A stretch of 64,000 nt of DNA from an uncultured Chloroflexia bacterium (GTDB lineage: Bacteria; Chloroflexota; Limnocylindria; Limnocylindrales; CSP1-4). Made by a program: the position numbers and the translations under genes. Under the pieces are notes generated by a model. That model saw only the letters and a list, made by a program, of their open reading frames with translations. It had not been told where the DNA came from and made no database searches. Location of the stretch: the NCBI GenBank assembly GCA_963744115.1, contig CAVUSI010000002.1, positions 473,209 to 537,208 on the forward strand. The letters run 5' to 3'. Within the stretch, counting starts at the first letter, position 1; each line of letters begins with the position of its first letter. Below, piece after piece: positions 3,056 through 18,933 of this stretch.

Positions 3056-3669
3056 TCGAACGCCAGCGGCCCTGCCGCCCCGCCCAGCGTGAGCCGGAGC
3101 CGGATCGCGTCGTCGTCGGGATGGTTCGGGTCGTAGATCCACAGGACGACGGTCCCGGCGGCGGCGTCGAGCTCGTAGCCGTGGACGACCACCTGGTGGT
3201 CGCCGATGAGGTGGCGCGGATCCGCCGACGCCACGTGGGTGAGCCCGAGTGCTGCCGGCCGTCCGGCGTCGATCTCCCGGCGGACCGCCGGCCACGCATC
3301 GCGGACCGCGAGACGGGCGCGGGTCGACGCGCCGACCGCGCCCGTTCGCCAGAACCGGGTCACCGCCACGCCCCAGCCGAGGCTCTCGATCTGGCGGCGG
3401 ACGATCTCGCGGAACAGCTCGGAACCCTCGGGGGGCGGCGTCAGGTCAGGTGGTGGCGGTTCCCCGACCAGCCAGCGGTCGATGGTCGCGAGCGCCATCC
3501 CGCCGCACAGCCCGTTCGCCGTGTCGCCGATCCGCAGCTCGAGCTCGACCGGTACAGGCCCGGGGATCCGGACGGCGACGCGGATCGCCGGACCGTGCGG
3601 CCACTGGTTGGCGAAGTGGAACCCCGCGGTGGAGGGGAGGAAGCCGGGGACCGCCCGGATCGTGGTCAT
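3010..3669 (-). CDS. Hypothetical protein with papain-like Cys-His-Asp motifs
   Basis: ATG 3669 has TATCGT 7 nt upstream; motifs NGLCGGM, DHQVVVHGYE and WIYDPNHP. Confidence 0.75.
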   Translation of the reverse strand: MTTIRAVPGFLPSTAGFHFANQWPHGPAIRVAVRIPGPVPVELELRIGDTANGLCGGMALATIDRWLVGEPPPPDLTPPPEGSELFREIVRRQIESLGWGVAVTRFWRTGAVGASTRARLAVRDAWPAVRREIDAGRPAALGLTHVASADPRHLIGDHQVVVHGYELDAAAGTVVLWIYDPNHPDDDAIRLRLTLGGAAGPLAFDYVAGEAPVLGLVRL

Positions 3670-3719
3670 CGTCCCAACGATAGCCCGGAAGGCGGCGGGA
3701 CGGCGCCGCCCTCGGCCGC

Positions 3720-3757
3720 CCATCTTGCCATCTAGATGGGAAGATGGGAAGATGGCA
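3720..3757. promoter_or_regulatory. TA operator: five CCATCT/AGATGG boxes at 8-bp spacing
   Basis: CCATCT at 3720 and 3728; AGATGG at 3734, 3742 and 3750; 3720-3747 is a 28-bp palindrome with one mismatched pair, directly before the antitoxin start. Confidence 0.75.
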
Positions 3758-3759
3758 CC

Positions 3760-4020
3760 GTGAAAGTCACGCTGGACATCAAGGACGACCTGTATCGCGC
3801 CATCAAGGTCGAGGCCGCCCGTCAGGACCGAACGGTCCGCGACATCGCCGACGAGGCGCTCGAGGCCTGGCTGGAGGCGATCGAGAACGCCGAGGACATC
3901 GCCGCGGCCACGGCAGCCGAAGCCGAGTACCAGCGCGACGGCGGTGGGGTCGACATCGACGAATACTTCAGACAGAGGGTCGCTGAGGACCGCGCGAAGT
4001 ACGGCACGCGCAAGGGGTGA
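3760..4020 (+). CDS. Ribbon-helix-helix antitoxin
   Basis: VKVTLDIKDDLYRAIKVEAARQDRTVRDIADEALEAWL fits an RHH fold; acidic C-terminus; overlaps the toxin start (GTGA). Confidence 0.85.
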   Translation: MKVTLDIKDDLYRAIKVEAARQDRTVRDIADEALEAWLEAIENAEDIAAATAAEAEYQRDGGGVDIDEYFRQRVAEDRAKYGTRKG

Positions 4021-4295
4021 CCGCCCGCTCGGCGTACCGGATCGTGGTGACGGCCGCCGCACAAAGGGAGATGGATCGGCTCCCAGCCGATGTCGTTGCC
4101 AGGGTCCGGATGCCGCTACGAGCGCTCGCGACCGACCCCCGGCCGCCGGGGGTCAAACGATTCGTCGGGGCCGATTTCTGGCGGATCAGGGTCGGGGACC
4201 TGCGGATCGTGTACCTGATCGATGACGGGGCTCGAGTGGTTCGCATCGAGCGAGTGGTCCGCCGTGCCGAGAGCTCCTACCGTCGCCTCCGCTGA
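4017..4295 (+). CDS. relE: RelE/ParE-family toxin
   Basis: YRIVVTAAAQREMDRL...DPRPPGVKRFVGADFWRIRVGDLRIVYLIDD is a typical RelE pattern; 92 aa, basic. Confidence 0.9.
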   Translation: MTARSAYRIVVTAAAQREMDRLPADVVARVRMPLRALATDPRPPGVKRFVGADFWRIRVGDLRIVYLIDDGARVVRIERVVRRAESSYRRLR

Positions 4296-4348
4296 CGACG
4301 CCAGCGCCGCGCCACGCGCTGCTCGTCTCGAGGCGCGACGGCCCGCCT

Positions 4349-5713
4349 CAGCGGTCCTGAAGGTCGTCGATCCGGTAGGGCATCGTGCTCGACGACCAGG
4401 TCGCCGAGACGTCGGCGCGGGAGGCGGTGAAGAAGCGGGTCAGCCCGGACACCGTGAACAGGATGGCGAAAGCAGGGTAGCCCAGCGGCAGGATCGCCAG
4501 GATGGCGGCGTTGGACAGCTGTCCGGCGGTGACGCCCGATCGCCGTCCCGGCCACGAACCGACCCTGCGCCCGGATGACGTCGGGACCGTGCGTGATCCG
4601 CATCAGGCGCTCGTTGGACGACAGGGTGCCGGCCGCGGCCCCGGCGCTGGCGACCACCGCCACGACGCAGATGACGAGCCACGCCAGCGGGTTCTGCGGG
4701 AAGGCCAGCAGGCCGAGGATCATCGACCCGCCGCGGAGCAGGAACGACAGCCGCAGGGTCCTCGACGCGGAGCCTCGACTGAGCATCCCGCCGACCATCG
4801 TCGCCGCGACGAGCGACGCGCCGGACGCGAGCGCAGCGAGCAGGATCGCGAACGCCGGCGGGAGGTGCAGGACGCTGATCGCGTAGATCGACAGATACGG
4901 ACCGAACCCGGCGCCGAACGCGGCAAGGGTGATCGAGCGCAAGAAGCGGTCGAGCTCGCGCGGTCCGGGTCCCTTGGCCGGCGTCGTCGGCCGGCCGGTG
5001 GCGGGGTCAAGGACCGGCTCGGCGGGCCGTGGTTCGGCCACCCGGACCCGGCCGGGCTTGGGCAGGCGACGGACGACCAGCAGCTCGGCGACTCCCGCGA
5101 CGCCCGCCACGACGAAGACGGCGGCGTAGATCAGCACGCCGACCCGTGACTCCGTGAGCTGGACGAGGATGGCCACGGGCAGCAGGAGGAAGGCGCCGAG
5201 GCCCAGGTTGGTGCCCATCACCCTCGGCGCGACGAAACGGCGCTCGCCGTCGGGCATGATCGCCCCGAACCAGGCGAGGAGGTTCGTCCCGCCGATCGTG
5301 GTCGCGGCGCCGGCCATCGTCATGACGGCGCCGATGGCGACGATCGCGACCGAGGCCGGCATGACCTTGGCCCAGACGAGGAAGGTCAGGATCGCCAGGA
5401 TGAACCCGCGGGTCTCACCGACCAGCAGGATCGCCAGGGTGACGCCGCGAAGGTTGCCGTCGAACCGACGCAGGAGGCGCGGGACGAGCAGCTGGGCCGC
5501 CGAGAACGCGAACGGCAGGACACCGATGACCGTCGCCACGGCCGGTGAGGCACCGAGCACGAGCAGGAGCGGGACGGTGAGCCCGTCGCCGGCCAGGGCG
5601 GACACGGCCGCCTGCCCCATGCCGATCCCGAGGTAGCGCCGATAACGCTTGCCGAGGAAGATGCGCCACTCGTCGAGGGCGGTGCGCAGCGCGGGCTGCC
5701 TCGGCTGATCCAT
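4349..5713 (-). CDS. MFS transporter, frameshifted near the C-terminus
   Basis: Many TM segments in ORF 4277..5713. After GTAIG (~4480) one extra G shifts the frame; the alternative frame continues [26 protein letters not shown]...LQDR to a stop at 4349. Confidence 0.75.
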
Positions 5714-5812
5714 CGCGCCAAGCCTACCCGCGGTGGGGTGGCGACCGATGCCGATCGCGGTCGGCGGGCCGCTCCCGGCCGGTCCAGGCTCGAGGAGCCC
5801 GGCGGCCTGCCG

Positions 5813-6910
5813 TCAGGCGGCGATCCTCGGGCCGTACCAGACGCTGGCGGCGATGATCAGGTAAAGGGCGACAAGGGCGAGGCCCTCGAGCCAGGTCGAC
5901 TCACCGTCGAACACGATGAGCGCGCCGAGGATCACGGCCAGAGCCAGCGACCCGAGCAGGAGCGGGGTCAGCACGAGCGTCAGCGGCGGGCCGCCGATGA
6001 CCATCGAGATGAGGACGAGTGCCGGGGTCAGCGCCAGGGCGATCTGGAGGCTCGAGTTCAGGATCAGGCTCGCCGCGAGGTCGACCTGGTTCTTGATCGC
6101 GAACCGGACCCCGACGACGTTCTCGACCGCATTGCCGGCGATGGCCACGACGACCAGCCCGGCGAACTCCTCGGAGATGCCGAGCGACGCGAGCGACGGC
6201 ACCAGGGCGTCGACGAACCACTCGGAAACGAGCGCGGCGCCGGCCGCCGACAGGGCGAGGAGCCCGATCGCCAGCGGCAACGGCCAGACCTCGTCGACCG
6301 GAGCCTCCATCGCGCTCGCGCCGGGACCACCCGAGATCGAGAACGGGATCGACGCGGCGAACAGGACCAGCAGGACGAGCGCCGTGAACACGCTGAGCTC
6401 CTGGGCGTGTCCCGCGTCCGGGGCGCCGGGTGCCGTGGCGAGGGTCGGGATCGCCAGGGCCGCCACGGCCAGGACGAGCAACACGGCGATCATCCGGACC
6501 GGCGCGGCTCCGAACCGGAGGACCCCGTTCGTCCGACCGCCGAAGAAGAAGGCGAGGCCGAGCACGAGCAGGCAGTTGGCCAGGATCGACCCGACAAGCG
6601 CCGTCTGCACGACGACGACGAGACCGGCCTGCAGCGCGAAGATCGAGATGAACAGCTCGGGCAGGTTGCCCAGCGCGGACTGGAGGACGCCGGTCTTGCC
6701 CGGGCCGAGGCGGTGACCGAGCTGGTCCGTGCCCGAGCCGATCAGCCCGGCCAGCCCCGCCAGGGCGATCGCCGAGACGACGAACACGAGCGCGTGCGGC
6801 GCCCCCGCGAACTGGAGGACCGCGGTGGCGATCGTCAGCCCGCCGGCGACGACGAGCAGGATCGAGGCGGTCCGCCCGAGGGTCCGGAGCAGCGCGGACA
6901 GGGCGGTCAT
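5813..6910 (-). CDS. cax: Ca2+/H+ antiporter (CAX/ChaA family)
   Basis: Alpha-repeats GNLPEL and GNAVEN; about 10 TM segments; ATG 6910 has TATCAT 7 nt upstream. Confidence 0.92.
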
Positions 6911-6958
6911 GCGCGGGATGATACGGGTCCGGTCGGCCCGCATTGCTACCATCGACGC

Positions 6959-9059
6959 ATGCCCACCAACCGGCTCGCCGGCGAGACGAGCCCGTACCTC
7001 CTCCAGCACGCCCACAACCCCGTGGACTGGTATCCGTGGGGCGAGGAGGCGCTCGTCCGTGCGCGCGCGGAGGACAAGCCGATCTTCCTTTCGATCGGCT
7101 ACGCGGCCTGTCACTGGTGCCACGTCATGGAACGCGAGTCGTTCGAGGACGAGGCGACGGCCGCCGACCTGAACCGCGACTTCGTGCCGATCAAGGTCGA
7201 CCGCGAGGAGCGGCCGGATCTCGACCAGGTCTACATGGCCGCGGTCCAGGCGATGACCGGGCAGCGGCGGCTGGCCGATGAGCGTCTTCCTGACGCCCGA
7301 CGGGCGGCCGTTCTACGGCGGCACGTACTTCCCGGACTCGCCGCGTCACGGGATGCCCGCGTTCCGTCAGGTCCTCGAGGGCGTCGCTCGCGCCTACCGC
7401 GAGCAGCGCGACGAGGTCGAGCGGTCCGGCGGGGCGATCGTGGCGGCCATCGCCGACGCGTCGCGGTTCGGCGCGACCGGCGGTCCGGCCGACGTCCCCG
7501 CCCAGGGCCTGCCCGACCGGACCGTGCTGGACGCGGCGGTCGCCGCCCTCGAGCGGACGTTCGACCCGCGGCACGGCGGCTGGGGTGCCGCTCCGAAGTT
7601 CCCGCAGCCGATGACCATCGAGTTCCTGCTCCGGCGGGCGGCCTCGGGCGACGACGACGGCCGGTCGCTGGCGATGGCGCGGCGGACGCTCGACGCGATG
7701 GCCGACGGGGGGATCCACGACCAGCTCGGCGGCGGCTTCCACCGCTACGCGACCGACGCGATCTGGCTCGTGCCGCACTTCGAGCAGATGCTCTACGACA
7801 ACGCCCAGCTCGCCCGGGTCTACCTCCATGCCTGGCAGCTGACCGGCGACCGACGCTACCGCGAGGTCGCGCTCGGCACGCTCGACTACATGGCACGGGA
7901 GCTGCTCACGGCGGACGGGGCATTCGCGGCGAGCCAGGATGCCGACACCGACGGCGACGAGGGGGCGACCTTCGTGTGGACCGCCGAGGAGATCCGGCGG
8001 ATCCTCGGCCCCGACGAGGCGGCCCTGTTCGGCGCGGCGTACGACGTGACCGAGGGCGGCAACTGGGAGGGCCGGACGATCCTCCGCCGGGTCCGCTCCG
8101 ATGCCGAGCTCGCGGCGATGAGCGGGACGCCCGCCGACGAGGTCGCCCTGCGCCTGGCGACGGCGCGCGAGACGCTCCTGGCGGTCCGCGCCGATCGTCC
8201 GCAGCCGGCCCGCGACGACAAGGCCCTCGCCGGCTGGAACGGGCTCGCCCTCGGGGCGCTGGCGGACGCGGCGGCGGCTCTCGAGACCGCCGGCGACGAC
8301 GCCGACGAGGCCCTCGCGGCGCGCTACCGCGACGTGGCGACGACGGCCGCCGAAACCCTCCTGGCGAACCTCCGCGCGCCGGACGGTCGCCTGCGCCGGA
8401 GCTGGAAGGACGGGCGCGCCTCCGCCGACGGCGTCCTCGAGGACTACGCCTGCCTCGCCGACGGCCTGTTCGCGCTGTACGGCGCGACGTTCGACGAGCG
8501 CTGGTTCGTGGCCGCCCGAAGCCTCGCCGACACGATCCTGGCGGAGTTCGCGGACCCGGCCGGCGGGTTCTTCGACACGGGCGACCGCCACGAGACCCTC
8601 GTCACCCGACCGAAGGACCTCCAGGACAATGCGGTCCCCTCGGGGAACGCGATGGCCGTCACGGTCCTGCTCGAGCTGGCCAGCCTCACCGGCGAGGGCC
8701 GCTACGTGGCCGCCGCGGAGCGCGCCGTCGCGCAGGTCTCGGGGGTGCTCGCCCGATATCCGGGCGGGTTCGGGCAGTGGCTGATCGCGCTCGACCTCGC
8801 CCTGGCCGACGTGGTCGAGGTCGCGGTGGTCGGCGACCCGGCGGACGAAGCCACGGCCCGGTTGGTGCGTCCGGCCCGGACCGGCTACCGGCCGCACACC
8901 GTGGTCGCCTGCGCGGCCGATCCGGAAGCCAGCACGATCGAGCTCCTCGGCTCGCGGTTCCGCCTCGCGGGTCGGCCCACCGCGTACGTCTGCCGCGACT
9001 TCGCCTGCCGCCAACCGGTGACCGAGCCGGAGGCCCTGGCGGCCCTGCTGCTCGAATGA
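6959..9059 (+). CDS. YyaL/SSP411-family thioredoxin-domain protein, one frameshift
   Basis: [53 protein letters not shown]. An extra C at ~7264 breaks [13 protein letters not shown]. Confidence 0.92.
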
Positions 9060-9068
9060 GGTGACCCG

Positions 9069-9299
9069 ATGAGCGAGTCGTCAAGCCAGCATCCGGTCTC
9101 CGACGCGGGCTGTCTCCGATGCAACGCACCCCTCGAGTCACTGGGCGTCCACCAGTTCCGCACCGGCGGCACGACCGGGGGCTGGAAGCTTCTGTTCGGT
9201 GAGTGGGCCGAGGTCGGCGAGGACATGCTCCCGTTCGAGGTCCGCGCCTGTCGAGCCTGCGGCAACGTCGAGCTGCGCCTGCCATCGACCGGCCGATGA
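9069..9299 (+). CDS. Small zinc-ribbon protein
   Basis: CLRC...CRAC pairs in 76 aa; AGGTGA RBS; stop overlaps the next start. Confidence 0.8.
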   Translation: MSESSSQHPVSDAGCLRCNAPLESLGVHQFRTGGTTGGWKLLFGEWAEVGEDMLPFEVRACRACGNVELRLPSTGR

Positions 9300-9850
9300 C
9301 CGTCAGCGTCCGTGAGATCCACCCGGACGAGTACGACGCGCTCGGGGCGATCACGGTCGCGGCCTACCTGACCGTGGGCGAGGACGGCCATGACGGGTAC
9401 CTGGACGTCGTCCGTGACGTCGCGCGGCGGGCCGCCAGCTGTCCGGTCCTGGTCGCGGTCGACCACGACGGCCGGATCCTGGGCGGCGTGACCTACGTCC
9501 CCGGACCGGGCACGCCATGGTCGGAGTCCGAACGCGAGGGCGAAGCCGGGTTCCGGATGCTCGCGGTCGATCCGGCCGGCGGCCAGGGTCGGGGGGCCGG
9601 GCGCGCGCTCGTCCAGGCCTGCATCGACCGGGCCCGCGCCGAGGGTCGCTCACGGATCGTCCTGCTGACCCGGCCCCGGATGACGGCGGCCCAGCGGCTG
9701 TACCAGCGGATGGGGTTCCGGCGCGCTCCCGAGCGCGACTGGGAGCCGGAGCCTGGGATCGAGCTGCTCGGGTTCGAGCTGGATCTCGGGCTGGACACGC
9801 TGCCGGACGGTGCGGCGGACGGTTCGACGACCCTCGACCGAGCCGACTGA
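9296..9850 (+). CDS. GNAT acetyltransferase
   Basis: FRMLAVDPAGGQGRGAGRALV (motif A) and MTAAQRLYQRMGF (motif B). Confidence 0.9.
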   Translation: MTVSVREIHPDEYDALGAITVAAYLTVGEDGHDGYLDVVRDVARRAASCPVLVAVDHDGRILGGVTYVPGPGTPWSESEREGEAGFRMLAVDPAGGQGRGAGRALVQACIDRARAEGRSRIVLLTRPRMTAAQRLYQRMGFRRAPERDWEPEPGIELLGFELDLGLDTLPDGAADGSTTLDRAD

Positions 9851-9856
9851 CCGCGG

Positions 9857-11173
9857 ATGGAACGCCGCCCAGCGGCTGCCACGGACCCGCCGGTCGAGCC
9901 GCGACCCGCGGCGACGATCGTCCTCGTCCGGCCGAGCGCCGACGGCCTCGAGGTCCTGCTGACCCGCCGCCCGGACTCGATGGCGTTCGCGGCCGGGCTC
10001 CACGTGTTCCCGGGCGGCCGGGTCGAAGAGGCGGACGGCGACGCGAGGCTGGTGGCCCGGGCGAGCGGGCCGCGCGACGATCCGGCGTTCCGGGTCGCGC
10101 ACCGGATCGCGGCGATCCGCGAGACGTGGGAGGAGGTCGGGGTGCTGCTCGCCGGGCGCGGAGCGACGGCCGAGCCCGACGCCGCAGGAGCCGGGGTCGG
10201 AGCCGCCGCGGGCGGCCCGCGGGACGCCGACCATGACTTCGTCGCGTTGGCGACACGGCTCGACCTGTCGCTGGCGACCGTCGACCTCGTCGAGGTCGCC
10301 CGCTGGGTCACGCCTCGGGCGTACCCGCGCCGGTTCGATGCCAGGTTCTACGTCGCCGAGCTGCCACCCGACGCGGTGCTCGCCCCCGATCCGCGCGAGG
10401 TCGTCGACCACGCCTGGCTGACCCCGCGGGCGGCCCTCGCGGCGATGGCCGACGGGACCATCGCGATGTGGCCGCCGACGTCGACCACGCTCCAGCGCCT
10501 CGAACGGGCCGGATCGTTCGCCGAGGTCCGAGCCGGCCTCGTCCGCGGTCCGGAGCTGCGCATCCGGATCGAGCGGGTCGACCCGACCCTGACCGTCGTG
10601 ACCGGTCGGGCCACGTTCGGGCCGGACGGCCGGCCCGTGAACACCGTTCTCGTCGGTCGGCGGGCGGTGGTGGTCGTCGATCCCGGTGACCCGGACGAAG
10701 ACGTCCTCGACGCGATCGAGGCGACCGTGGCCGCCGGCGGCGGTCGGATCGTCGCGATCGCCCTGACCCACGTGGATCCCGGCCACGCGGCCGGGTCGGC
10801 CGAGCTCGCCGAGCGAACCGGGGCGCCGGTCGTCGTCGGGCCCGGCGGTGCGGCATCGCTGTCCTGGGACGCCTCGGAGGTCGTCGACGGGGCGTCGGTC
10901 GGTCGCGGGGACGACGGACTCACCGCAGTGGCGACCCCCGGCCATCGGCCCGACCACCTGGCCTTCCTCCGGCCCGACGGGACGCTCCTGACCGGCGACG
11001 CGATCACCGACCGCCCCACGCTCGTCCTGCCTCCCGAGGGGGACGCGGCCGCACACGCGGCGACCGTCGCGCACGTCCGGACGCTCGTCGCTGCGGGGAC
11101 GGTCCGCCGGTTCGTACCGGGCCACGGCCCGGCGATCCTGGCCGATCCCGCGGCCATCCTTGCCGGTCGCTAG
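9857..11173 (+). CDS. NUDIX (NUDT19-like) and metallo-beta-lactamase fusion
   Basis: RPAATIVL...VFPGGRV...AAIRETWEEVG and RRFDARFY (NUDIX); TPGHRPDH, TGDAI and PGHG (MBL). Confidence 0.88.
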   Translation: MERRPAAATDPPVEPRPAATIVLVRPSADGLEVLLTRRPDSMAFAAGLHVFPGGRVEEADGDARLVARASGPRDDPAFRVAHRIAAIRETWEEVGVLLAGRGATAEPDAAGAGVGAAAGGPRDADHDFVALATRLDLSLATVDLVEVARWVTPRAYPRRFDARFYVAELPPDAVLAPDPREVVDHAWLTPRAALAAMADGTIAMWPPTSTTLQRLERAGSFAEVRAGLVRGPELRIRIERVDPTLTVVTGRATFGPDGRPVNTVLVGRRAVVVVDPGDPDEDVLDAIEATVAAGGGRIVAIALTHVDPGHAAGSAELAERTGAPVVVGPGGAASLSWDASEVVDGASVGRGDDGLTAVATPGHRPDHLAFLRPDGTLLTGDAITDRPTLVLPPEGDAAAHAATVAHVRTLVAAGTVRRFVPGHGPAILADPAAILAGR

Positions 11174-11184
11174 ACTGACGCGCC

Positions 11185-12036
11185 ATGAGCCTGCCGCCGG
11201 ACGCCTCGCCGCCGGACGCCTCGCCGGCGGATGCACTGCCGCCGGACGAACCGCCTGCTGCCTCGGCCGCCGAGGTCGAGGCAGAGGCGCTTCGCTTGAT
11301 GCGGTCGGTGACCGACGCTCGGCTCCGGGTCCGACTGATGGGCGGGCTGGCGATCCGGATCCAGTCGCCGACGGCCTCACGACCGCCGTACGAGCGGACC
11401 TACCGGGACTTCGACCTCGTGGCGCACGACAAGGACGTCTCGGCGCTCCGCCGACTGCTCGATGCCGCCGGCTACGTCGGGGACAAGCTGTTCAACGCGA
11501 TCCACGGCGCGCAGCGGCTGGTCTACTCGGCGCCGGACGGCCGCTGGTCGGTCGACATCGTGATCGATCGGCTGGAGATGTCCCACACCCTCGACCTCAA
11601 GGGCCGGCTCGCGACCGATGGGCCCACCCTCGATCTCGCCGACCTGCTGTTGACCAAGCTCCAGATCTGGGAGACGAACCGGAAGGACCTCGGCGACGCG
11701 ATCTGCCTGCTGGCCGACCACCCGCTCGCTGCGGTCGGTCGGTTGTCGGCCGCGGGCGGAGCCGACGGGACTCCGGCGCCGATCGATCTTGTCCGCCTCC
11801 GATCCGTCCTCGGCGCGGACTGGGGCTTCTGCCACACGGTCGAACGGAACCTCCGGGCGGTCGCCGAACAGTGGGTGACCGCGCCGATCCCCGACCCGCC
11901 GTTCGCCGTCGACGCCCAGGTCGCGACCCTGCTCGCGGACCTCGAGGCGGCTCCGAAGTCGCTGGGCTGGAAGGCGCGCGCACGCGTCGGTGAGCGGGTC
12001 CGCTGGTACGAAACGCCCGAGGAGGCCCGCCGCTAG
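11185..12036 (+). CDS. Nucleotidyltransferase-superfamily protein
   Basis: RLMGGLAI...YRDFDLV gives a GG-x-DxD metal motif; ADLLLTKLQI helix; TAGACT upstream of the ATG. Confidence 0.75.
   Translation: MSLPPDASPPDASPADALPPDEPPAASAAEVEAEALRLMRSVTDARLRVRLMGGLAIRIQSPTASRPPYERTYRDFDLVAHDKDVSALRRLLDAAGYVGDKLFNAIHGAQRLVYSAPDGRWSVDIVIDRLEMSHTLDLKGRLATDGPTLDLADLLLTKLQIWETNRKDLGDAICLLADHPLAAVGRLSAAGGADGTPAPIDLVRLRSVLGADWGFCHTVERNLRAVAEQWVTAPIPDPPFAVDAQVATLLADLEAAPKSLGWKARARVGERVRWYETPEEARR
11194..11250 (+). repeat. 15-bp coding tandem repeat (PPDAS)
   Basis: CCGCCGGACGCCTCG twice, plus two degenerate copies. Confidence 0.8.
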
Positions 12037-12060
12037 ACGCCCGAGGAGGCGCGCCGCGAG
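12013..12060 (+). repeat. 24-bp tandem duplication of the gene 3' end
   Basis: ACGCCCGAGGAGGCCCGCCGCTAG followed by ACGCCCGAGGAGGCGCGCCGCGAG (22/24 identical). Confidence 0.75.
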
Positions 12061-12094
12061 CCGGCGACCTCCCGCTTCGCGTCGACCCGGGCCC

Positions 12095-13009
12095 TCAGCC
12101 CTCGCCGAGTCCGTTGCGGACGAGCGCCTCACGCCAGTACTCGACGCTGGCGACCAGGTCGTCGAGGACCGATTCGTCGTCCTGCTCGAATGCCGGGATG
12201 ATCTCGAGGATGAGCGCCGTCGTCTCGACGCCGCCGGCCTCGAGCGCGGCCAGCACCCGGTCCGCATCGATCCTGCCGATCGCGTTGCGGTCCGCCGTGA
12301 ACGGCCAGTGGTGGTCGCCATCGGCGTCGGATTGCTGGAGCTGCACGACGGGAGCCGCCCAGCCGAGCTCGACCAGCCAGGCGTATGGATCGCGGTCCGG
12401 ACCGGTCGACCCGGGCACGCACATGTGACCGACGTCGAGGCAGAGCCGGACCGGCACGCATCCATCGTCGCCGCTCGTCAGCAGCTCTCGGATCATCGCC
12501 ATGGTCGACGGCTCGCGTGCAGCGGCGAGGTTCTCGACCATGAGGTACTCGAGACCGGCACGCGACGCCGCGCCCGACAGGTCGATCAACGACGCCTGCA
12601 GCTCCGTCCACCGCGCCGCACGCCGGTCGGGATCCGTCCAGTCCGGGACGCTGAAGGCGCCGACGTGGCCGCCGGTCGCCACGCCGCCGAGCGCCGCGGT
12701 CCAGTCGATGGCCCAGCGGAACCAGCTCGCTGCGGCGGCGCGTCCGGCCGGGTCGGGTCCCAGGAGCAGGTTGTCCGAATAGGCCGCCAGGCCGGTGAAC
12801 GTCGAATGGATCTCGATGCCCGCCGCGGTCGCCGTTCGCGCCAGCGCCGCGGCATCGTCCGCGCTCGAGCCTGCCGCCACCAGGTCGAACGAATGCTGGA
12901 CGAGCGACAGGCCCAGCCGCTCGCGCACGATCGGGATCCAGTCCTCGGCGAGCGGCCAGCGCTTGACGGCGAAACAGGTGTTGATCCCGAGCCGGACGTC
13001 CACCGTCAA
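12095..13009 (-). CDS. TIM-barrel sugar-phosphate epimerase, EryC-like (AP endonuclease 2 fold)
   Basis: LGINTCFAVKRW, CLDVGH, DPYAWL, HWPFTA...GRI and LEI resemble D-erythrulose-1-phosphate 3-epimerase as I recall it (DPYAW, HRPFTA, GRI). Confidence 0.85.
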   Translation of the reverse strand: MTVDVRLGINTCFAVKRWPLAEDWIPIVRERLGLSLVQHSFDLVAAGSSADDAAALARTATAAGIEIHSTFTGLAAYSDNLLLGPDPAGRAAAASWFRWAIDWTAALGGVATGGHVGAFSVPDWTDPDRRAARWTELQASLIDLSGAASRAGLEYLMVENLAAAREPSTMAMIRELLTSGDDGCVPVRLCLDVGHMCVPGSTGPDRDPYAWLVELGWAAPVVQLQQSDADGDHHWPFTADRNAIGRIDADRVLAALEAGGVETTALILEIIPAFEQDDESVLDDLVASVEYWREALVRNGLGEG

Positions 13010-14520
13010 CCTCCCCGGACCGCCGCGGACGCGGCCAGTCTGCGATATGCGCCGAGAGCCTCGTCGTAGGCCGATCGGGCGCCGGCGTCCGGCTCGATCG
13101 GCGGTTCGGTCCGGGTGCAGCGGGCGATCGCCTCGGCCGGATCACGGTAGATCCCGGCACCCAGGCCGGCCAGCATCGCGACCCCGGTGACGGCGGCGTC
13201 GCCGGGGACCGTCCGGACCGGGATGCCCAGCACGTCGGCCTTGATCCGCGTCCAGGTCCCGAGGCGGGTGTCGCCGCCCGACACGCGCAGCTCGGTGACC
13301 GGCGCCCCGCCCACGCGGAGGAGGTCGAGCTGGTCGGCGATGGCGAACGCCACGCCCTCGAGGACCGCGCGCGCCAGCACCGCCCGGCCATGGCGGAGCG
13401 ACAGTCCGGCGAAGGCGCCGCGCAGGTCGGGATCGGTCCGCTCGCCGTCACCGAGGACGGGCAGGGCGACGACCCCGTCCGCTCCCGGGCCGATCGCCCC
13501 GGCCTCAGCGTCGAGGCGGTCGTAATCGGCGGCCGCCGGCCTCCCGGACCGACCCGCATAGGCGAGACCGGCGAGCCAGGCCACCGCGGCTCCCGTGGTG
13601 TTGATCCCGGTCTCGGTCGTGAACGGACCCGGGATGACGTGCGGGTAGTGGGTCACGGCCAGGACGTCGAGCGGTTCGCGGACGGCCGCATTGAGGCAGG
13701 TCGACGAACCGGCCATCTCGCTCACCGGTCCGGGTGCGATCACCCCGGCCCCGAGCGCGCAGGCCTGGCTGTCCGCCCCGCCGAGGATCACCGGCAGGTC
13801 GACCGGCAGGCCGACCCGAGCCGCCACGGCGGCCCGCAACCCACCGACGACGGCACTCGACGCCATGATCGCCGGGAAGAGCGAGCGGTCGAGGCCGAGG
13901 TCGTCGAGCATCCGGTCATCCCAGCCGCCGGCGCGCAGGTCGTACACGAGCGTCGCTCCGGCATGCGTCCCGTCGGTCGCGGCGACTCCGGTCAGGTGGA
14001 GGGCGACCAGGTCGCGCGGTTGGAGGGCGAGCGAAGCCAGCCTGAAGTCGGCCGCCTGATGCTCGCGCAACCAGAGCAGCTTCGGGGCGATGTGGAAGCT
14101 CGACGGAAGGTGACCGGTCCGGGCGTGGATCGCCTCGTCGCCGAAACGCTCGCGCATCGCCGTCGCTTCGGCGACCGCTCGGTTGTCGCGGTAGATCAGG
14201 CCGCTCGTCACCGGTCGACCGCGTCGATCGACCAGGACGACCGACGGGCACTGGCCGGTCAGCCCGATCGCGCGCACGTCGGCGGCGCGACCGAGGCCGT
14301 CGGCCTCGAGACGTCGGACCAGATCGGCCAGCGCCCCGACCGCCGCGGACCGCCACGAGCGCGCGTCCTGCTCCGCCCATCCCGGCCGGGGAGCAGCCGT
14401 CGGGTAGCTCCGACGCGCCTCGAGGATGCGTCGGCCGGCGAGGTCCAGGGCCGCGGCTCGGGCCCCGGACGTGCCGACGTCGATCGCGACGAGCAGTCCA
14501 TCGTGCCGGGCGCGGGTCAC
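13006..14520 (-). CDS. FGGY-family carbohydrate kinase (xylulokinase-like)
   Basis: IDVGTSGARA, GWAEQD, GLTGQ, PKLLWL, GGADSQ, VLEGVAF, VSGG. Confidence 0.93.
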   Translation of the reverse strand: MTRARHDGLLVAIDVGTSGARAAALDLAGRRILEARRSYPTAAPRPGWAEQDARSWRSAAVGALADLVRRLEADGLGRAADVRAIGLTGQCPSVVLVDRRGRPVTSGLIYRDNRAVAEATAMRERFGDEAIHARTGHLPSSFHIAPKLLWLREHQAADFRLASLALQPRDLVALHLTGVAATDGTHAGATLVYDLRAGGWDDRMLDDLGLDRSLFPAIMASSAVVGGLRAAVAARVGLPVDLPVILGGADSQACALGAGVIAPGPVSEMAGSSTCLNAAVREPLDVLAVTHYPHVIPGPFTTETGINTTGAAVAWLAGLAYAGRSGRPAAADYDRLDAEAGAIGPGADGVVALPVLGDGERTDPDLRGAFAGLSLRHGRAVLARAVLEGVAFAIADQLDLLRVGGAPVTELRVSGGDTRLGTWTRIKADVLGIPVRTVPGDAAVTGVAMLAGLGAGIYRDPAEAIARCTRTEPPIEPDAGARSAYDEALGAYRRLAASAAVRGG

Positions 14521-14521
14521 G

Positions 14522-15475
14522 TCAGCCCCGGACGAGCTGGTGCGCCGCGACCTTGTCGCGCTCGAGGGTCATGATCGCTCCGTTGAGGACGCCCGTCCCG
14601 TAGTCCGAGCCCGGATTGATGGCGATCGTCCGGCCCAGCCGGCGGATGCCGCCCGACTCGTGGATGTGCCCGTGCAATCCGAGCAACGGCTGGATCGTCA
14701 TCAGCGCGTCGCGGACCGCGGTGCTGCCGACCGGCGCGAACTTGACCTGGCCGACGGAGGTCTGGACGGTCAGGTTCGCGTCGAGGACCGGCGCCTCGTC
14801 GAGGCCGCTCCCGAACGGCGGGACGTGGACGTTGACGATCGCCCGCTCCGGCGCCTGCAGCCTGGCCGCCATGTCGCCGATCGCCGCGGCCAGGCCGTCC
14901 TCGGTCATCTCGCGATGGCTGTGCCACGGCGTGATGTTCGAGTAGCCGAGCGAGATCATCTCGTGATCGTCGTCGATCATGACGACCCGACCCTCGTCGT
15001 GGACGCCCCACGGCGCGTCGTCGAGGAGCGATCGCAGCTCCGCCGGGTCGTCGTTGCCGAGCATGAAGTACAGCCGCTTGCCGGTCGGGCGAAGGCGCTC
15101 ATCGGCCAGGTTCAGCCACTCGTTGAGCCGCGCGTGCATCAGGCTGACGAACAGGGCATCGAGCGATCCGTCGGCCTTCCGGGCGTCGAGCTCGCCGGCC
15201 TCCGCCCGGTACGGGTAGTAGCCGTGATCGGCGATGAGCTTCTCGAGCGCCTCGAGCTCGGGTCCGTCCTCGACGTCGTAGCTCGTCCCGATGAACGAGC
15301 AACGGTACCGACCGTCGCTGCCGCGGACGATCGTCTGGAGCGCCTTCCCGGCGATATCGCCGCCCAGGACGAGGACGTCGACGCCGTAGGCCGTACCGGC
15401 ATTGACGAACTTCCGGAAGCATTTGCTCGATCCGTGGAGGTCGGTGGCGAAGTAGACCTTGGTCTTCTTGCCCAT
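14522..15475 (-). CDS. Icc-related metallophosphoesterase
   Basis: ATDLHGS, LGGDIAG, GNDD, HVPP and LHGHIHE are calcineurin-like motifs. Confidence 0.9.
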   Translation of the reverse strand: MGKKTKVYFATDLHGSSKCFRKFVNAGTAYGVDVLVLGGDIAGKALQTIVRGSDGRYRCSFIGTSYDVEDGPELEALEKLIADHGYYPYRAEAGELDARKADGSLDALFVSLMHARLNEWLNLADERLRPTGKRLYFMLGNDDPAELRSLLDDAPWGVHDEGRVVMIDDDHEMISLGYSNITPWHSHREMTEDGLAAAIGDMAARLQAPERAIVNVHVPPFGSGLDEAPVLDANLTVQTSVGQVKFAPVGSTAVRDALMTIQPLLGLHGHIHESGGIRRLGRTIAINPGSDYGTGVLNGAIMTLERDKVAAHQLVRG

Positions 15476-15481
15476 CGCCGG

Positions 15482-16300
15482 TCAGGCGCCGACCGCGCGC
15501 GAGCGGACGGTCCGGGCCGCGTCCATCAGGCGCATCGCCCGGTCGCGGTCGACCGCGTTCCAGGTCACCCCATCGACCTTGAGACTGGTCCCGACGATCG
15601 CGCCGTCGGCGACCGCGAAGATCTCCTCGATCCGCTCGGCCCGGACCCCCGTGTTGGCGATGACCGGCGTGTCCGGGATCGCCTCCTTGGCCGTCCGCAG
15701 GTCGCTCATCGCGAACGACACTCCGGCGGCCGGTCCGCTGATGAGGACGGCGTCCATCCCGAGGAAGGCGGCGCCCTTGGCCCGCTCCGCGACGCCCCGG
15801 CTGCCGATCGCGCTGGCGAACTCCGGGAGGACGTTGTCGAACAGGGCGACGTCGGCGGCCCCGATCATCGTCCGGTATCCAGCGATCTCGCCGATCTTCG
15901 GCTCGATCATCCCGAGGTCGCTCTCGTAGACGCCGGTCAGGACCTCGCGGATGAAGCTCGCCCCGGTCGCCCTCGCCAGGGCCAGGCTGGCGATCGCGTC
16001 CCACAGGATGTTCACCCCGAACGGGACCCGCACGTCGCTCCGGAGCATGCCGATGGTGGCGGCCATGGCGCTCGGGATCTCCGGTCCCACCTTGAGCTGG
16101 TAGGGATAGTCGGCCTCGTTGCAGAACAGGACCCCGTCGACGCCCGCCTCCTGCAGGATCGCCAGGTCGCGCCCGAGGCTGTCGAGCGCCTTGCCCTGCC
16201 CCGCGGCGACATCGTGCAGCGGTCGGCCGGGCAGGCCGGGGAAATGGAGCATCGCGACCACCGGCTTGACCGTCCCGAAGATCCGCTCCAGTGCGTCCAT
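15482..16300 (-). CDS. BtpA/SgcQ-family TIM-barrel protein
   Basis: KPVVAMLHFPGLPG, GVDGVLFCNE, PFGVNIL, DGAIVGTSLK. Confidence 0.92.
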   Translation of the reverse strand: MDALERIFGTVKPVVAMLHFPGLPGRPLHDVAAGQGKALDSLGRDLAILQEAGVDGVLFCNEADYPYQLKVGPEIPSAMAATIGMLRSDVRVPFGVNILWDAIASLALARATGASFIREVLTGVYESDLGMIEPKIGEIAGYRTMIGAADVALFDNVLPEFASAIGSRGVAERAKGAAFLGMDAVLISGPAAGVSFAMSDLRTAKEAIPDTPVIANTGVRAERIEEIFAVADGAIVGTSLKVDGVTWNAVDRDRAMRLMDAARTVRSRAVGA

Positions 16301-16309
16301 GCTCTCTCC

Positions 16310-17176
16310 TCAGGCTGGGTCGATCCGGGCCGACGAGGCGGCGAGCGCTTCGTCGTTCGGACCGGCGATGACGATCTCGAGACCGGCGGCGGCCAGGGCC
16401 GTCAGCTCGAGCGCGGGGGCGGATCGGTCGGTGACGAGGGTCTGGATCGAGGCGGCCTCGGCCACGACCGCGTTCGCGGATGTGCCGATCTTCGAGCCGT
16501 CGGCGATGACGACCACGCGGGCGGCTCGCTCGATGGCGAGGCGCTGGATCTCCGCCTCGTCGTCGTCGACCTCGGTCAGGCCCCAACGCGCGCTGAGCCC
16601 GGCGGCGCCGATGACCGCCAGGTCGAACCGGAAGCGACCGAGGGTCGCGGCGGCGACCGGTCCGACGCAGGTCAGCTCGTCGCGTCGGACGGCGCCGCCG
16701 AGGGCCACGACCTCGACCGGGCGGGTCCCGAGGAGACTCGCCGTCGGGAGCGACGCCGTCACGACGACCAGGCCCGGGCGGACCGGCAGGAACCGGGCGA
16801 ACTGCTCGGCGGTCGTGCCGATCCCGACGAAGACCACCCGGGCGTCACCGAGGAGGTGGGTCGCGCGCATCCCGATCCGGCGCTTCTCCCGGGTGTGCTG
16901 GAGCGCCCGCGCGTTGAACGCGACGTCGAGCGCCCGGGTCAGGTGGGCGGTCGCCCCACCGTAGGTCTGGCGGACGAAGCCGTCCCGCTCGAGCCGGCGG
17001 ATGTCCCGGCGGATCGTCATCTCGCTGACATCGAACTCCCGGGCAAGGTCACCGACGTGGATCGTCTGCTCCTCGGCGACGCGCTCGAGGATGCGATGAC
17101 GCCGGTCGACCGCCGCGAGCGGCCGCGGACGGCCACCGCTCGTCTCCGCACGTCTCACAGCATCCGACACGTTCAT
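16310..17176 (-). CDS. DeoR/GlpR-family regulator
   Basis: RRHRILE...DLAREFDVSEMTIRRDIRRLE is a DeoR HTH, followed by a sugar-phosphate sensor domain. Start position is uncertain. Confidence 0.92.
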   Translation of the reverse strand: MNVSDAVRRAETSGGRPRPLAAVDRRHRILERVAEEQTIHVGDLAREFDVSEMTIRRDIRRLERDGFVRQTYGGATAHLTRALDVAFNARALQHTREKRRIGMRATHLLGDARVVFVGIGTTAEQFARFLPVRPGLVVVTASLPTASLLGTRPVEVVALGGAVRRDELTCVGPVAAATLGRFRFDLAVIGAAGLSARWGLTEVDDDEAEIQRLAIERAARVVVIADGSKIGTSANAVVAEAASIQTLVTDRSAPALELTALAAAGLEIVIAGPNDEALAASSARIDPA

Positions 17177-17198
17177 TCCTCGAAACGCACAACAACCA

Positions 17199-17225
17199 TT
17201 GACGAACAGTGTGCGATTGTGTTCG
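17199..17225. promoter_or_regulatory. Inverted repeat CGAACA-N11-TGTTCG overlapping TTGACG
   Basis: Lies in the AT-richer divergent region between deoR and the APC permease; candidate DeoR operator. Confidence 0.45.
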
Positions 17226-17298
17226 ACTATCAATGCGGCAGGCCCGCGCTGTCAAGCGCTCACACCGCACTGTGGACCGCGACGGAGGAGGAACCACC

Positions 17299-18933
17299 TT
17301 GACCACGAAGGTCGACGGTACCGGGGGTAGCCAACTGTTCGTTCGCCAGAGCACGGGGCTGGTTCGGGAGGCCTCGGCGCTCGATGCGACGATCTTCAAC
17401 GCGGTCTTCTCGGCGCCGGTCGGCGCCGCTCTCGCCTTCGGCCTGTTCTGGGCCTACTCCGCCTTCCCGAAGGCCGACCTGGTGTCGGCCACGATCATCT
17501 CGCTGTTCCTGAACGTCCCCGTCCTGATCATGATGGCGCTGCTCGCCGCCAGCATGCCGCGGACCGGCGGCGACTACGTCTGGGTCAGCCGGATCCTGTC
17601 GCCCCCGCTGGCGCTGATCAGCAACTTCGGCGCGGCGCTGTCGGCGATGATCGGGGCCACCTTCTGGGCCCGCTACTTCGCCGTGTCGGCCCTCGGGCCC
17701 GTCCTCGTCTCGATCGGGGCGGTGACCGGGAACGCGACGCTGGTCGAGTGGGGCCAGAACTTCAGCGACCAGAAGAACCACCAGATCTGGGTCTTCCTCG
17801 GCGGCTTCGCGATGATCGCATTGATGACGGCCATCCTCATCGCCGGCACGAAGACGACCTTCCGCTGGCAGAACACGTTCTTCGTCATCGCGATGGCGGG
17901 CACGCTCGCCGCATTCGTCGTCCTCCTGTTCGGCAACAACGCGGACTTCCAGGCGCACTTCAACACCCTGAACGCCACGTTCGGCGGCGGGACCGCGGCG
18001 GACGTCATCGGCGACAAGGCGGGGATCGGTCCGGATACCTCGGACCTCGGCTCGCTCGTCCCGGCGATCTTCGTGGTCATGACCTTCATGATGTGGAACT
18101 GGTGGTCGGTCTACCTCGCCGGCGAGCTGAAGAGCGCGATGAACCGTGGTCGCCAGCTCAGCATCATGTTCGGCGCGCTGATCTTCGACGTGGTGTTCAT
18201 CTCGCTCGGCGCGATCCTGTTCTTCCGCGTCGTCGGCTTCGACTTCGTCGTCGCGGCCAACAGCGGCAGCACCGCCTACGCGATCCCGTCGGGCGCCTTC
18301 TTCCAGCTCCTCGCGAGCCTGGTCGCCGACATCCCCGTGGTGACCGTGCTCATCGTCGGCTCGTTCCTGTTCTGGAGCCTGCCCGCGATGGTCGGCAACA
18401 CGTTCATGCCGATCCGCTCGGTCTTCGCCTGGTCGTTCGACCGACTCCTGCCCGAGAAGTTCGCCGAGGTCAACGAGCGGACCCACTCGCCCGTGCCGGC
18501 CATCCTGCTGGTCATGGGCATCATCACCGCGATGCTTGCCTGGAGCATCGTGTCGACCGACTTCGGGACGTGGCTGGCGCTGGGCGTCCTGGCCGGCGTC
18601 GTCTGCGTCGTGATCGTCGCCGTCGCCGCCTTCGTCTTCTCGAGCCGCCGACCCGACCTGTACCAGGCGTCCCCGGCCAACGTGACCTTCGCCGGTCTGC
18701 CCGTCCTCAAGATCGTGGCCCCGCTGTCGATCCTGGTGATGGTCTTCCTGGTCTACGCCGTCCTGGCCTACCCGCCGCTGGCACTCGGGAGCTCCGACAA
18801 CGCCTGGTGGGTCCCGGCCTTCATGCTCGCCATCGTCATCATCGGACTGGTCATCTTCTATGGCGCCCGCGCCATCCGGAAGAGCCAGGGCATCGATATC
18901 GATCTCGTCTACCGGGAGCTTCCCCCCGAGTGA
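17299..18933 (+). CDS. APC-family permease
   Basis: TTG start after GGAGGAGG; FVRQSTGLVRE, MPRTGGDYVWVSR, RSVFAWSFDRLLP, YRELPPE; at least 12 TM segments. Confidence 0.92.
   Translation: MTTKVDGTGGSQLFVRQSTGLVREASALDATIFNAVFSAPVGAALAFGLFWAYSAFPKADLVSATIISLFLNVPVLIMMALLAASMPRTGGDYVWVSRILSPPLALISNFGAALSAMIGATFWARYFAVSALGPVLVSIGAVTGNATLVEWGQNFSDQKNHQIWVFLGGFAMIALMTAILIAGTKTTFRWQNTFFVIAMAGTLAAFVVLLFGNNADFQAHFNTLNATFGGGTAADVIGDKAGIGPDTSDLGSLVPAIFVVMTFMMWNWWSVYLAGELKSAMNRGRQLSIMFGALIFDVVFISLGAILFFRVVGFDFVVAANSGSTAYAIPSGAFFQLLASLVADIPVVTVLIVGSFLFWSLPAMVGNTFMPIRSVFAWSFDRLLPEKFAEVNERTHSPVPAILLVMGIITAMLAWSIVSTDFGTWLALGVLAGVVCVVIVAVAAFVFSSRRPDLYQASPANVTFAGLPVLKIVAPLSILVMVFLVYAVLAYPPLALGSSDNAWWVPAFMLAIVIIGLVIFYGARAIRKSQGIDIDLVYRELPPE

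Follow-up and report, generated by a model that had tools for sequence, protein, structure and literature searches.

Based on frame, profile, structural and neighbourhood analyses of a 64,000-nucleotide stretch of DNA from an uncultured Chloroflexia bacterium (hereafter the window), we describe a seven-gene locus, carried by soil bacteria, in which an APC-superfamily permease, a metallophosphoesterase (MPE) and a Pol-beta-fold nucleotidyltransferase (NTase) are combined with a DeoR/GlpR-family repressor, a BtpA/SgcQ-family barrel, an FGGY-family sugar kinase and an EryC-like TIM barrel. The seven genes are co-conserved far beyond chance, and the locus consists of two joined modules, each of which also exists apart. 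Module A, made up of the APC permease, an MPE with the motif GNDD and usually the Pol-beta NTase, is an ancient uptake-and-processing unit, and module B, made up of DeoR, BtpA and the FGGY kinase together with the EryC-like TIM barrel, is a sugar-phosphate route. We propose, at a probability somewhat below one half (about 0.45), that the locus is a DeoR-repressed catabolic unit importing an amine-bearing sugar or polyol conjugate with a phosphoester or nucleotide link, from which MPE and NTase would free the sugar, to be then phosphorylated and converted.

Co-conservation was assessed by scanning a genome collection with MPE as the query, which returned 80 loci (MPE identity 70-98% in Chloroflexota, 66-68% in Dormibacterota and ~65% in Actinomycetota/Streptosporangiales), and nine window proteins were run against these by tblastn. 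In the 58 genome loci where the MPE gene has 4 kb or more of flanking sequence on each side, the permease, BtpA and the FGGY kinase are each linked to it in 57, NTase in 56, the TIM barrel in 55 and DeoR in 52, and the linked loci come from three phyla, namely Chloroflexota (Limnocylindria), Dormibacterota and Actinomycetota. The NTase gene is convergent to the TIM barrel gene in the window's clade and lies downstream of the permease in Dormibacterota and others; since it shifts position yet remains linked, NTase belongs to the system. Of all proteins in the cluster, MPE is conserved best, at 65-70% identity from phylum to phylum. In Dormibacterota the loci further contain an SDR, an alpha/beta hydrolase, an additional BtpA and an AMP-dependent ligase, and in Actinomycetota a second BtpA and a second FGGY kinase. 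Two BtpA paralogues occur in L023 and L026-L066 (Dormibacterota and some Limnocylindrales), and the window BtpA shares 70-78% identity with the second, distal copy but only 57-67% with the one beside MPE, which suggests that one paralogue has been lost or replaced in the window's clade. In two contigs of metagenome-assembled genomes (MAGs), L079 (10001-10949) and L028, cluster genes are fragmented or carry stop codons; these may be pseudogenes or frameshifts from long-read assembly.

Outside this locus, module A is found over a far wider range. At E<1e-30 the MPE family numbers ~423 clusters (50% identity), almost all of them ~315 aa long. Its distant members, which share 34-46% identity and lie on low-G+C contigs, retain only the combination of MPE, APC permease and NTase, with permeases 22-30% identical to that of the window and NTases 32-35% identical (E 1e-33 to 1e-35). 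A diverse set was assembled from a metagenome scan seeded on distant MPEs, followed by iterated hidden Markov model searches over all open reading frames (ORFs). It holds 23 loci with at least 4 kb per side (G+C 39-73%, carrying no taxonomy), of which 22 contain the permease, 14 NTase, 2 DeoR, 1 the FGGY kinase, 1 the TIM barrel and 0 BtpA. The permease thus adjoins MPE in 57/58 near and 22/23 diverse loci. Junctions between module A genes often measure 0-8 nt, and the genes are translationally coupled. In one locus, L083, NTase and MPE are fused into a single protein (P0259, 588 aa) beside a divergent permease. Region 2841-8218 of this locus contains the fusion, the APC-like permease of 624 aa and a second, 543-aa MPE-like protein, and the contig also bears integrase, ParA, relaxase and EcoEI_R_C, in keeping with a mobile-element appearance. 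Archaea carry the triad too, both on contig L084, which also encodes MCM and AFOR, and in a cultured haloarchaeon, Halobellus limi; Thermomicrobium roseum has the permease-MPE pair.

When all ORFs flanking 165 loci were clustered, no universal partner came to light other than APC and NTase, with DeoR, SDR and sugar genes in subsets; DeoR-type regulators flank MPE in ~11 diverse loci. Recurrent neighbours of module A, drawn from amine or C1 catabolism, include class-III aminotransferases (6 loci), a dimethylglycine-oxidase-like DAO+GCV_T protein (5-6 loci), ADI/DDAH-like enzymes (4 loci), PuuE-like CE4 amidohydrolases (5 loci), arylformamidase-like cyclases (5 loci), CN-hydrolases (T. roseum and L084), aldehyde:ferredoxin oxidoreductases (4 archaeal-type loci) and methylenetetrahydrofolate reductases (MTHFR, 3 loci), and in H. 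limi a GbsB-like alcohol dehydrogenase and a BADH-like aldehyde dehydrogenase, both below curated cut-offs. Six sister loci (L114, L121, L124, L134, L160 and L165) carry GntR/UTRA and PfkB fused to a GlmS/FrlB-like SIS inside module A, in the order GntR-APC-PfkB/SIS-LOG-MPE in L121 and APC-PfkB/SIS-NTase-MPE in L160. The common theme of these contexts is amine, amino-alcohol or methylamine compounds, sometimes sugar-linked. We also note that in L101, L089 and L136 a MetF/MetV-type methylene-THF reductase and an HdrD-like Fe-S subunit lie directly upstream of, and co-directional with, DeoR-MPE-APC, and that downstream in L101 MazG is fused to a tetrapyrrole-methylase-like protein.

MPE carries the motifs D12xH14, GD40, GN141DD, H217 and GH270xH272, i.e. 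the complete five-motif set of binuclear metal ligands of the metallophosphoesterase (calcineurin-like) superfamily, and D12, H14, D40, N141, H217, H270 and H272 are invariant in three alignments of 131, 19 and 24 homologues. Motif III is invariantly GNDD, not GNH[DE], so that the usual general-acid histidine is missing, and an insert of ~100 aa separates motifs II and III. There is no match in Pfam, with no Metallophos model at threshold. The structure is predicted with a pLDDT of 90.3, and its top Foldseek matches are aq_1956 (2YVT, E 5e-11) and TT1561 (1UF3, E 1.5e-8), with TM-scores to COG2129 structures of 0.53-0.55 by query and 0.66-0.73 by target, followed by UshA, Lmo2642 and SbcD/Mre11. 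An MPE profile gives weak matches in the PDB to LpxH (7e-5), aq_1956 (COG2129 similarity, E 8e-5) and Rv0805. MPEs that lack the histidine, such as LpxH, YfcE and MJ0936, cleave diesters and pyrophosphates with good leaving groups, not monoesters, and the His-less motif III together with the weak LpxH similarity suggests that the substrate has a good leaving group. Longer members of the MPE family show no informative extra domain apart from the NTase fusion.

In NTase, the first ~36 aa form a Pro/Ala-rich, low-confidence extension, and the catalytic signature G-G...D75xD77...D124 is conserved, G53 included, in 19 homologues. The hallmarks of the Pol-beta superfamily (hG[GS], DxD and a third carboxylate) are all present, and Foldseek assigns the NTase fold to the predicted structure (pLDDT 89.8) with a probability of 1.0. 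The matches (MenT1, TglT, LnuA, ANT(2'')-Ia and FKRP) come at low TM-scores, ~0.35-0.5 for MenT, and hence NTase constitutes a new branch of Pol-beta nucleotidyltransferases with its own helical C-domain. PF14907 (NTP_transf_5) scores 24.1 bits, under its threshold of 31.2, some homologues carry a precomputed PF14907 match, and a single-sequence search of the PDB found nothing.

The permease is a deep-branching, amine-type member of the APC superfamily and matches PF13520 (AA_permease_2) at 73.6 bits. A single-sequence search of the PDB gave no match, and a profile search detected CAT1 (1.4e-15), LAT2 (1.3e-11) and GkApcT (3.8e-9). Nearly all MPE-linked permeases, even those at 22-30% identity, end at the exact C-terminus in the tail +GI[DN]xxLx[FY][KR]E[IL]PPE, which may serve as a docking or autoregulatory element. 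Several loci that contain NTase have Phe at the aromatic position of this tail, for which reason a tail Tyr was rejected as a nucleotidylylation site; an alignment of 19 sequences contains no invariant Ser, Thr or Tyr specific to the permease. In APC transporters of alpha-amino acids, a G-[ST]-G motif in transmembrane helix 1 (TM1) binds the alpha-carboxylate. TM1 of the window permease, as read by eye without structural alignment, is IFNAVFSAPVGAALAF, and no GSG motif appears in that reading.

A promoter, TTGACA-18-GATAGT, lies at 17255-17226 on the minus strand; it is directed into deoR and is the only sigma-70-like site in 8.3 kb (shuffles give 0.2). It is followed by CGAACA, CGCACA and TGTTCG repeats, a candidate DeoR operator (17200-17225), and the arrangement TTGACA...GATAGT-CGAACAnnnnCGAACA is seen again in loci of Chloroflexota and Dormibacterota. 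The reading frame of DeoR stays open to 17233, and the position of the promoter places the start at ATG 17176. DeoR matches HTH_DeoR (56.9 bits) and DeoRC (139.2 bits); its best NCBIfam model, GlpR_Halo (184 bits), stays below cut-off, and no equivalog cut-off is reached. BtpA is assigned over its whole length by PF03437 (221.4 bits, cut-off 30) and TIGR00259 (228.4 bits, cut-off 153.4), and the cyanobacterial BtpA equivalog NF045918 is not reached (141.7 bits against a cut-off of 400). Many acid and base residues of BtpA are invariant. PDB searches found no solved structure for the family: single-sequence matches are marginal, and profile similarity is confined to the C-terminal phosphate-binding strands of TrpA and IMPDH. 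The kinase has both FGGY_N and FGGY_C, falls short of the XylB equivalog TIGR01312 (275.8 bits, cut-off 380.25) and matches the xylulokinases 5VM1 and 2ITM at ~1e-52 and the R. rubrum structure 3IFR at 3e-48. The TIM barrel belongs to PF01261 (AP_endonuc_2, 46 bits) and matches 3QXB (E 4e-36) and, over residues 6-294, Brucella EryC (4K3Z, E 1.7e-24).

Plasmids of Thermus thermophilus (L168, 7265-11027) and Rhizobium leguminosarum (pRL4b5; L169, 6123-10285) carry DeoR-BtpA-FGGY-SDR clusters whose BtpA is 45-50% identical to that of the window. These adjoin a CUT1-type sugar ABC transporter, contain no MPE, NTase or APC gene, and appear to encode an uncharacterised polyol or ketose route. The association of DeoR-BtpA-FGGY-SDR with sugar ABC transporters shows that module B can stand alone as a sugar route; in the window, an inserted MPE gene separates btpA from the kinase gene. 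BtpA matches by tblastn (E<=1e-10) occur in 188 plasmid records, 108 of them from Rhizobium, and gene order was inspected in L168 and L169.

The window has a G+C content of 72% and is rich in spurious ORFs, and coding frames were therefore chosen by analysis of third-position G+C (GC3). The GC3 filter leaves exactly one coding frame per gene at 11185-18933, giving seven genes (Table 1). Their order and family labels agree with an earlier note made from the letters of this DNA, as judged by GC3 frames, Pfam/NCBIfam models and, for MPE, motifs. The tight operon described there is seen in the spacing on the minus strand, where a 4-nt overlap between TIM barrel start and FGGY stop is followed by gaps of 1, 6 and 9 nt. 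Its label of an EryC-like epimerase (4K3Z and 3QXB) also holds, and that of a COG2129-like phosphoesterase agrees in fold with the top Foldseek matches, 2YVT and 1UF3. The note had made its proposal depend on the genes staying together, and they do, in 52-57 of 58 loci; its view that the permease is functionally tied to the cluster is likewise upheld.

Table 1. Genes and sequence elements of the seven-gene locus (positions in the window).
Feature	Position	Strand	Remarks
Pol-beta-fold NTase	11185..12036	+	283 aa
EryC-like xylose-isomerase-type TIM barrel (sugar-phosphate epimerase or isomerase)	12095..13009	-	304 aa
FGGY-family sugar kinase	13006..14520	-	504 aa; XylB-like, not XylB
Metallophosphoesterase (MPE)	14522..15475	-	317 aa; family without Pfam model
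BtpA/SgcQ-family (beta/alpha)8 barrel	15482..16300	-	272 aa
DeoR/GlpR-family repressor	16310..17176	-	~288 aa from ATG 17176
Promoter and repeats (candidate DeoR operator)	17200..17255	-	
APC-superfamily permease	17299..18933	+	544 aa; TTG start after GGAGGAGG
Conserved cytoplasmic C-terminal tail of permease	18886..18930	+	QGIDIDLVYRELPPE

The host assembly comprises 3.25 Mb at 71% G+C, and its closest relatives are Limnocylindria-type Chloroflexota MAGs. NTase, the TIM barrel, MPE, BtpA and the permease are each single-copy in this genome, which also encodes six more distant FGGY kinase paralogues. Upstream of NTase and co-directional with it lie a GNAT gene (9203-9850, +) and a gene for a Nudix-metallo-beta-lactamase fusion of 438 aa (9857-11173, +), which ends 12 nt before the NTase gene. 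Both are retained in the closest relatives only (L001-L013) and were rejected as cluster members for that reason; the presence of a Nudix protein (NDP-X hydrolase) beside NTase could be meaningful or plain synteny. Elsewhere in the genome (C3:1315168-1317553) a dimethylglycine-oxidase-like DAO+GCV_T protein is encoded, 48% identical to that flanking module A in other lineages, indicating that catabolism of N-methylated amines exists elsewhere in the organism.

On this basis, we propose that the locus would operate as follows. The permease would import a cationic or zwitterionic conjugate of an amine or amino alcohol with a short sugar or polyol, the two being linked by a phosphoester or nucleotide-type bond, and might do so by exchanging it for the released amine. 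In the cytoplasm, the binuclear MPE would cut an activated phosphodiester or pyrophosphate bond of the conjugate, with NTase making or remodelling a nucleotidylated intermediate that MPE resolves. The freed sugar or polyol would next be phosphorylated by the FGGY kinase and converted by BtpA, as a phosphate-binding barrel, and the EryC-like epimerase or isomerase to an intermediate of the pentose-phosphate or glycolytic pathway. A phospho-intermediate would release DeoR from the CGAACA-repeat operator, leading to induction. As the most concrete substrates we would guess at head-group esters of the glycerophosphocholine or glycerophosphoethanolamine type, or analogues with larger polyols, on account of the GlpR-like regulator, the choline- and betaine-type neighbours, and the alpha/beta hydrolase and acyl-CoA-ligase-type genes of Dormibacterota.

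Several points weigh against this proposal. The window contains no amine-removing enzyme, and NTase and MPE acting as a consecutive pair would form a futile cycle unless they address different bonds. NTase is missing near 9/23 of the diverse MPE-APC pairs and is thus not essential to MPE function. The great variety of catabolic genes beside module A suits a regulatory role independent of the substrate no less well than a shared chemical step. The window kinase is not orthologous to that of the Thermus and Rhizobium clusters (29-31% identity). Finally, substrate class, individual reactions and step order, like all functional assignments made here, follow from superfamily membership and gene context.

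A broader proposal, to which we give a minor chance, is that the triad represents an unrecognised transport-coupled nucleotidylylation system of Archaea and Bacteria. In one version, an imported amino alcohol or amino sugar would be trapped or activated as an O-nucleotidyl or NDP-linked intermediate and resolved by MPE, as a two-step route in place of a kinase; in the other, the permease itself would be switched by reversible nucleotidylylation. In a purely regulatory explanation, similarly doubtful in our estimate and modelled on GlnD, GlnE or DrrA/SidD, NTase as writer and MPE as eraser would set nucleotidylylation on the APC permease or another protein by nutrient status, the permease carrying different amines in each lineage and the sugar genes forming the local catabolic route. 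The NTase-MPE fusion recalls fused opposing activities, module A stands beside many unrelated pathways for nitrogen compounds, the cytoplasmic tail of the permease is strikingly conserved as a possible docking site, and no protein of the cluster is better conserved than MPE, the proposed eraser (65-70% identity between phyla). However, such a switch would have to modify a permease that has no invariant Ser, Thr or Tyr of its own in the 19-sequence alignment and whose tail aromatic is Phe in several NTase-bearing loci. NTase is also absent near ~40% of diverse MPE-APC pairs, neither NTase nor MPE has a sensor domain, and MPE is here embedded in the middle of a catabolic operon.

The earlier note had read the locus by analogy with the E. 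coli frl operon, as a single pathway for an amine-linked sugar or polyol. Worked out, it becomes a route for a short C-N-linked sugar (Amadori compound or glycosylamine), with the FGGY kinase in the role of FrlD, the TIM barrel in that of FrlC and BtpA in that of the deglycase, MPE as an accessory sugar-phosphate phosphatase and NTase unrelated or accessory. We consider this unlikely, although permease, kinase and TIM-barrel epimerase are co-conserved, and although a sister lineage has frl-type GntR/UTRA and PfkB-SIS between the permease and MPE or NTase. To this extent the analogy stands, and an amine-linked sugar or polyol also fits the sister operon and the amine-catabolic neighbours. It does not carry over to the locus as one frl-like pathway: there are two modules, Pfam and NCBIfam searches of the window found none of the frl-defining PfkB, SIS and GntR proteins, and DeoR-BtpA-FGGY also occurs with sugar ABC transporters and no amine permease. 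The obligate partner of the permease, in 22/23 diverse loci, is MPE and neither the kinase nor the epimerase, which the analogy leaves unexplained. NTase, described before as converging at the end, is a core member (56/58 near loci, 14/23 diverse loci and one fusion), and neither this linkage and fusion nor MPE finds a role in an frl-like scheme; His-less MPEs would moreover be poor candidates for monoesterases.

It is highly improbable that the locus encodes an ordinary pentulose or tetritol pathway of the xylulose or erythritol type, with permease, MPE and NTase as mere neighbours. The kinase is indeed closest to xylulokinases, the TIM barrel is homologous to EryC, and DeoR-BtpA-FGGY-SDR elsewhere uses sugar ABC transporters. 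Yet the operon encloses the MPE gene, set between those of BtpA and FGGY at distances of 1-6 nt, the seven genes are linked in three phyla despite the moves of NTase, the XylB score is below the equivalog cut-off, and the locus has no EryB-type dehydrogenase or sugar transporter. Scarcely credible is a toxin-antitoxin or anti-phage system with NTase as a MenT/AbiEii-like toxin, MPE as antidote and a permease-like effector, an idea raised by the best structural matches of NTase, the toxins MenT1 and TglT, and by the fused copy on an element with integrase, ParA and relaxase. TM-scores to MenT are low, and the conserved partners of NTase are MPE and permease, not an antitoxin. The genes are single-copy, chromosomal, vertically conserved and DeoR-regulated, and stand among catabolic genes in most lineages. 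PADLOC gave no family match apart from a 40-residue motif in MPE and none for NTase, and the defence reading was rejected on this negative result.

A literature search found no paper on the cluster or on the permease-MPE-NTase triad, nor anything relevant on BtpA/SgcQ or COG2129 proteins, and the source annotations read only 'APC family permease', 'metallophosphoesterase' and 'hypothetical protein'. The parts can be placed in known superfamilies, and the locus follows the logic of a catabolic operon. What the locus offers is that three families for which no biochemical function is known, namely BtpA/SgcQ (including E. coli SgcQ), the COG2129-like MPEs with GNDD and the PF14907-like NTase, are brought under common regulation beside readable partners, so that their functions become open to testing. 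A nucleotidylylation system, in either version, would if true provide the first functions for the COG2129-like MPE, the PF14907-like NTase and, via the operon, BtpA/SgcQ. The permease-MPE pair is widespread in bacteria and archaea, with ~423 clusters and thousands of copies in soil, peat and sediment metagenomes. Consistently located beside catabolic genes for amines, methylamines and amino alcohols, it is probably a marker of a common, unrecognised route for nitrogen-containing soil organic matter, especially in uncultured Dormibacterota and Limnocylindria. Cultured carriers are Halobellus limi (full triad), Thermomicrobium roseum (permease and MPE) and Thermus and Rhizobium (DeoR-BtpA-FGGY), where DeoR-BtpA-FGGY-SDR would be an easy entry point to BtpA function.

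Among known systems, the E. coli frl operon likewise places a single repressor over an APC permease, a sugar kinase and a TIM barrel of the AP_endonuc_2 family. It consists of the APC permease FrlA, the SIS deglycase FrlB, the TIM-barrel 3-epimerase FrlC, the PfkB kinase FrlD and the GntR/UTRA regulator FrlR, whereas the present locus has an FGGY kinase, a DeoR regulator, no SIS deglycase and, in addition, MPE, NTase and BtpA, and its TIM barrel resembles EryC and 3QXB more closely than it does ketose 3-epimerases. With the ery pathway of Brucella and Rhizobium (EryA, EryB, EryC, EryD and EryH/EryI) it has in common an EryC homologue, a sugar kinase and a repressor. In contrast, no EryB-type dehydrogenase or EryH/EryI (TpiA2/RpiB-type) isomerases are found among the seven genes or their flanks, an ABC transporter is lacking, and BtpA, MPE and NTase are extra. 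In the E. coli sgc genes (SgcR of the DeoR family, SgcQ of the BtpA family, the epimerase SgcE and a PTS) and in the Thermus and Rhizobium clusters, DeoR and BtpA are paired beside a phosphorylating step, as here; these, however, use PTS or sugar ABC transport and have no APC permease, MPE or NTase. The yiaK-S and ula systems of E. coli comprise the FGGY kinase LyxK, the ribulose-phosphate-binding-barrel decarboxylases SgbH/UlaD, the AP_endonuc_2 epimerases SgbU/UlaE and the DeoR-family regulator UlaR. This set of folds, with a phosphate-binding (beta/alpha)8 barrel among them, would match module B and serves as our working model for it, although BtpA is not of the OMPDC family by sequence, the 4-epimerase is absent and transport differs.

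For the NTase-MPE pair, GlnD (NTase and HD), GlnE and DrrA/SidD, as writer/eraser pairs, provide examples of a Pol-beta NTase paired with or fused to a metal-dependent phosphohydrolase, and the fold of NTase resembles that of LnuA and ANT(2'')-Ia, small-molecule O-nucleotidyltransferases acting on amino sugars. Compared with GlnD, GlnE, DrrA/SidD, LnuA and ANT(2''), there is no relationship at the sequence level, and sensor domains are absent here. MPE has the metallophosphoesterase fold and metal site in common with the COG2129 proteins aq_1956 and TT1561, which are without the ~100-residue insert, align at TM-scores of 0.5-0.7 and are themselves uncharacterised. The same fold and metal site occur in LpxH, the UDP-2,3-diacylglucosamine pyrophosphatase, whose motif III reads GNRD, so that the motif-III histidine is missing in this enzyme and in the MPE of the cluster alike.

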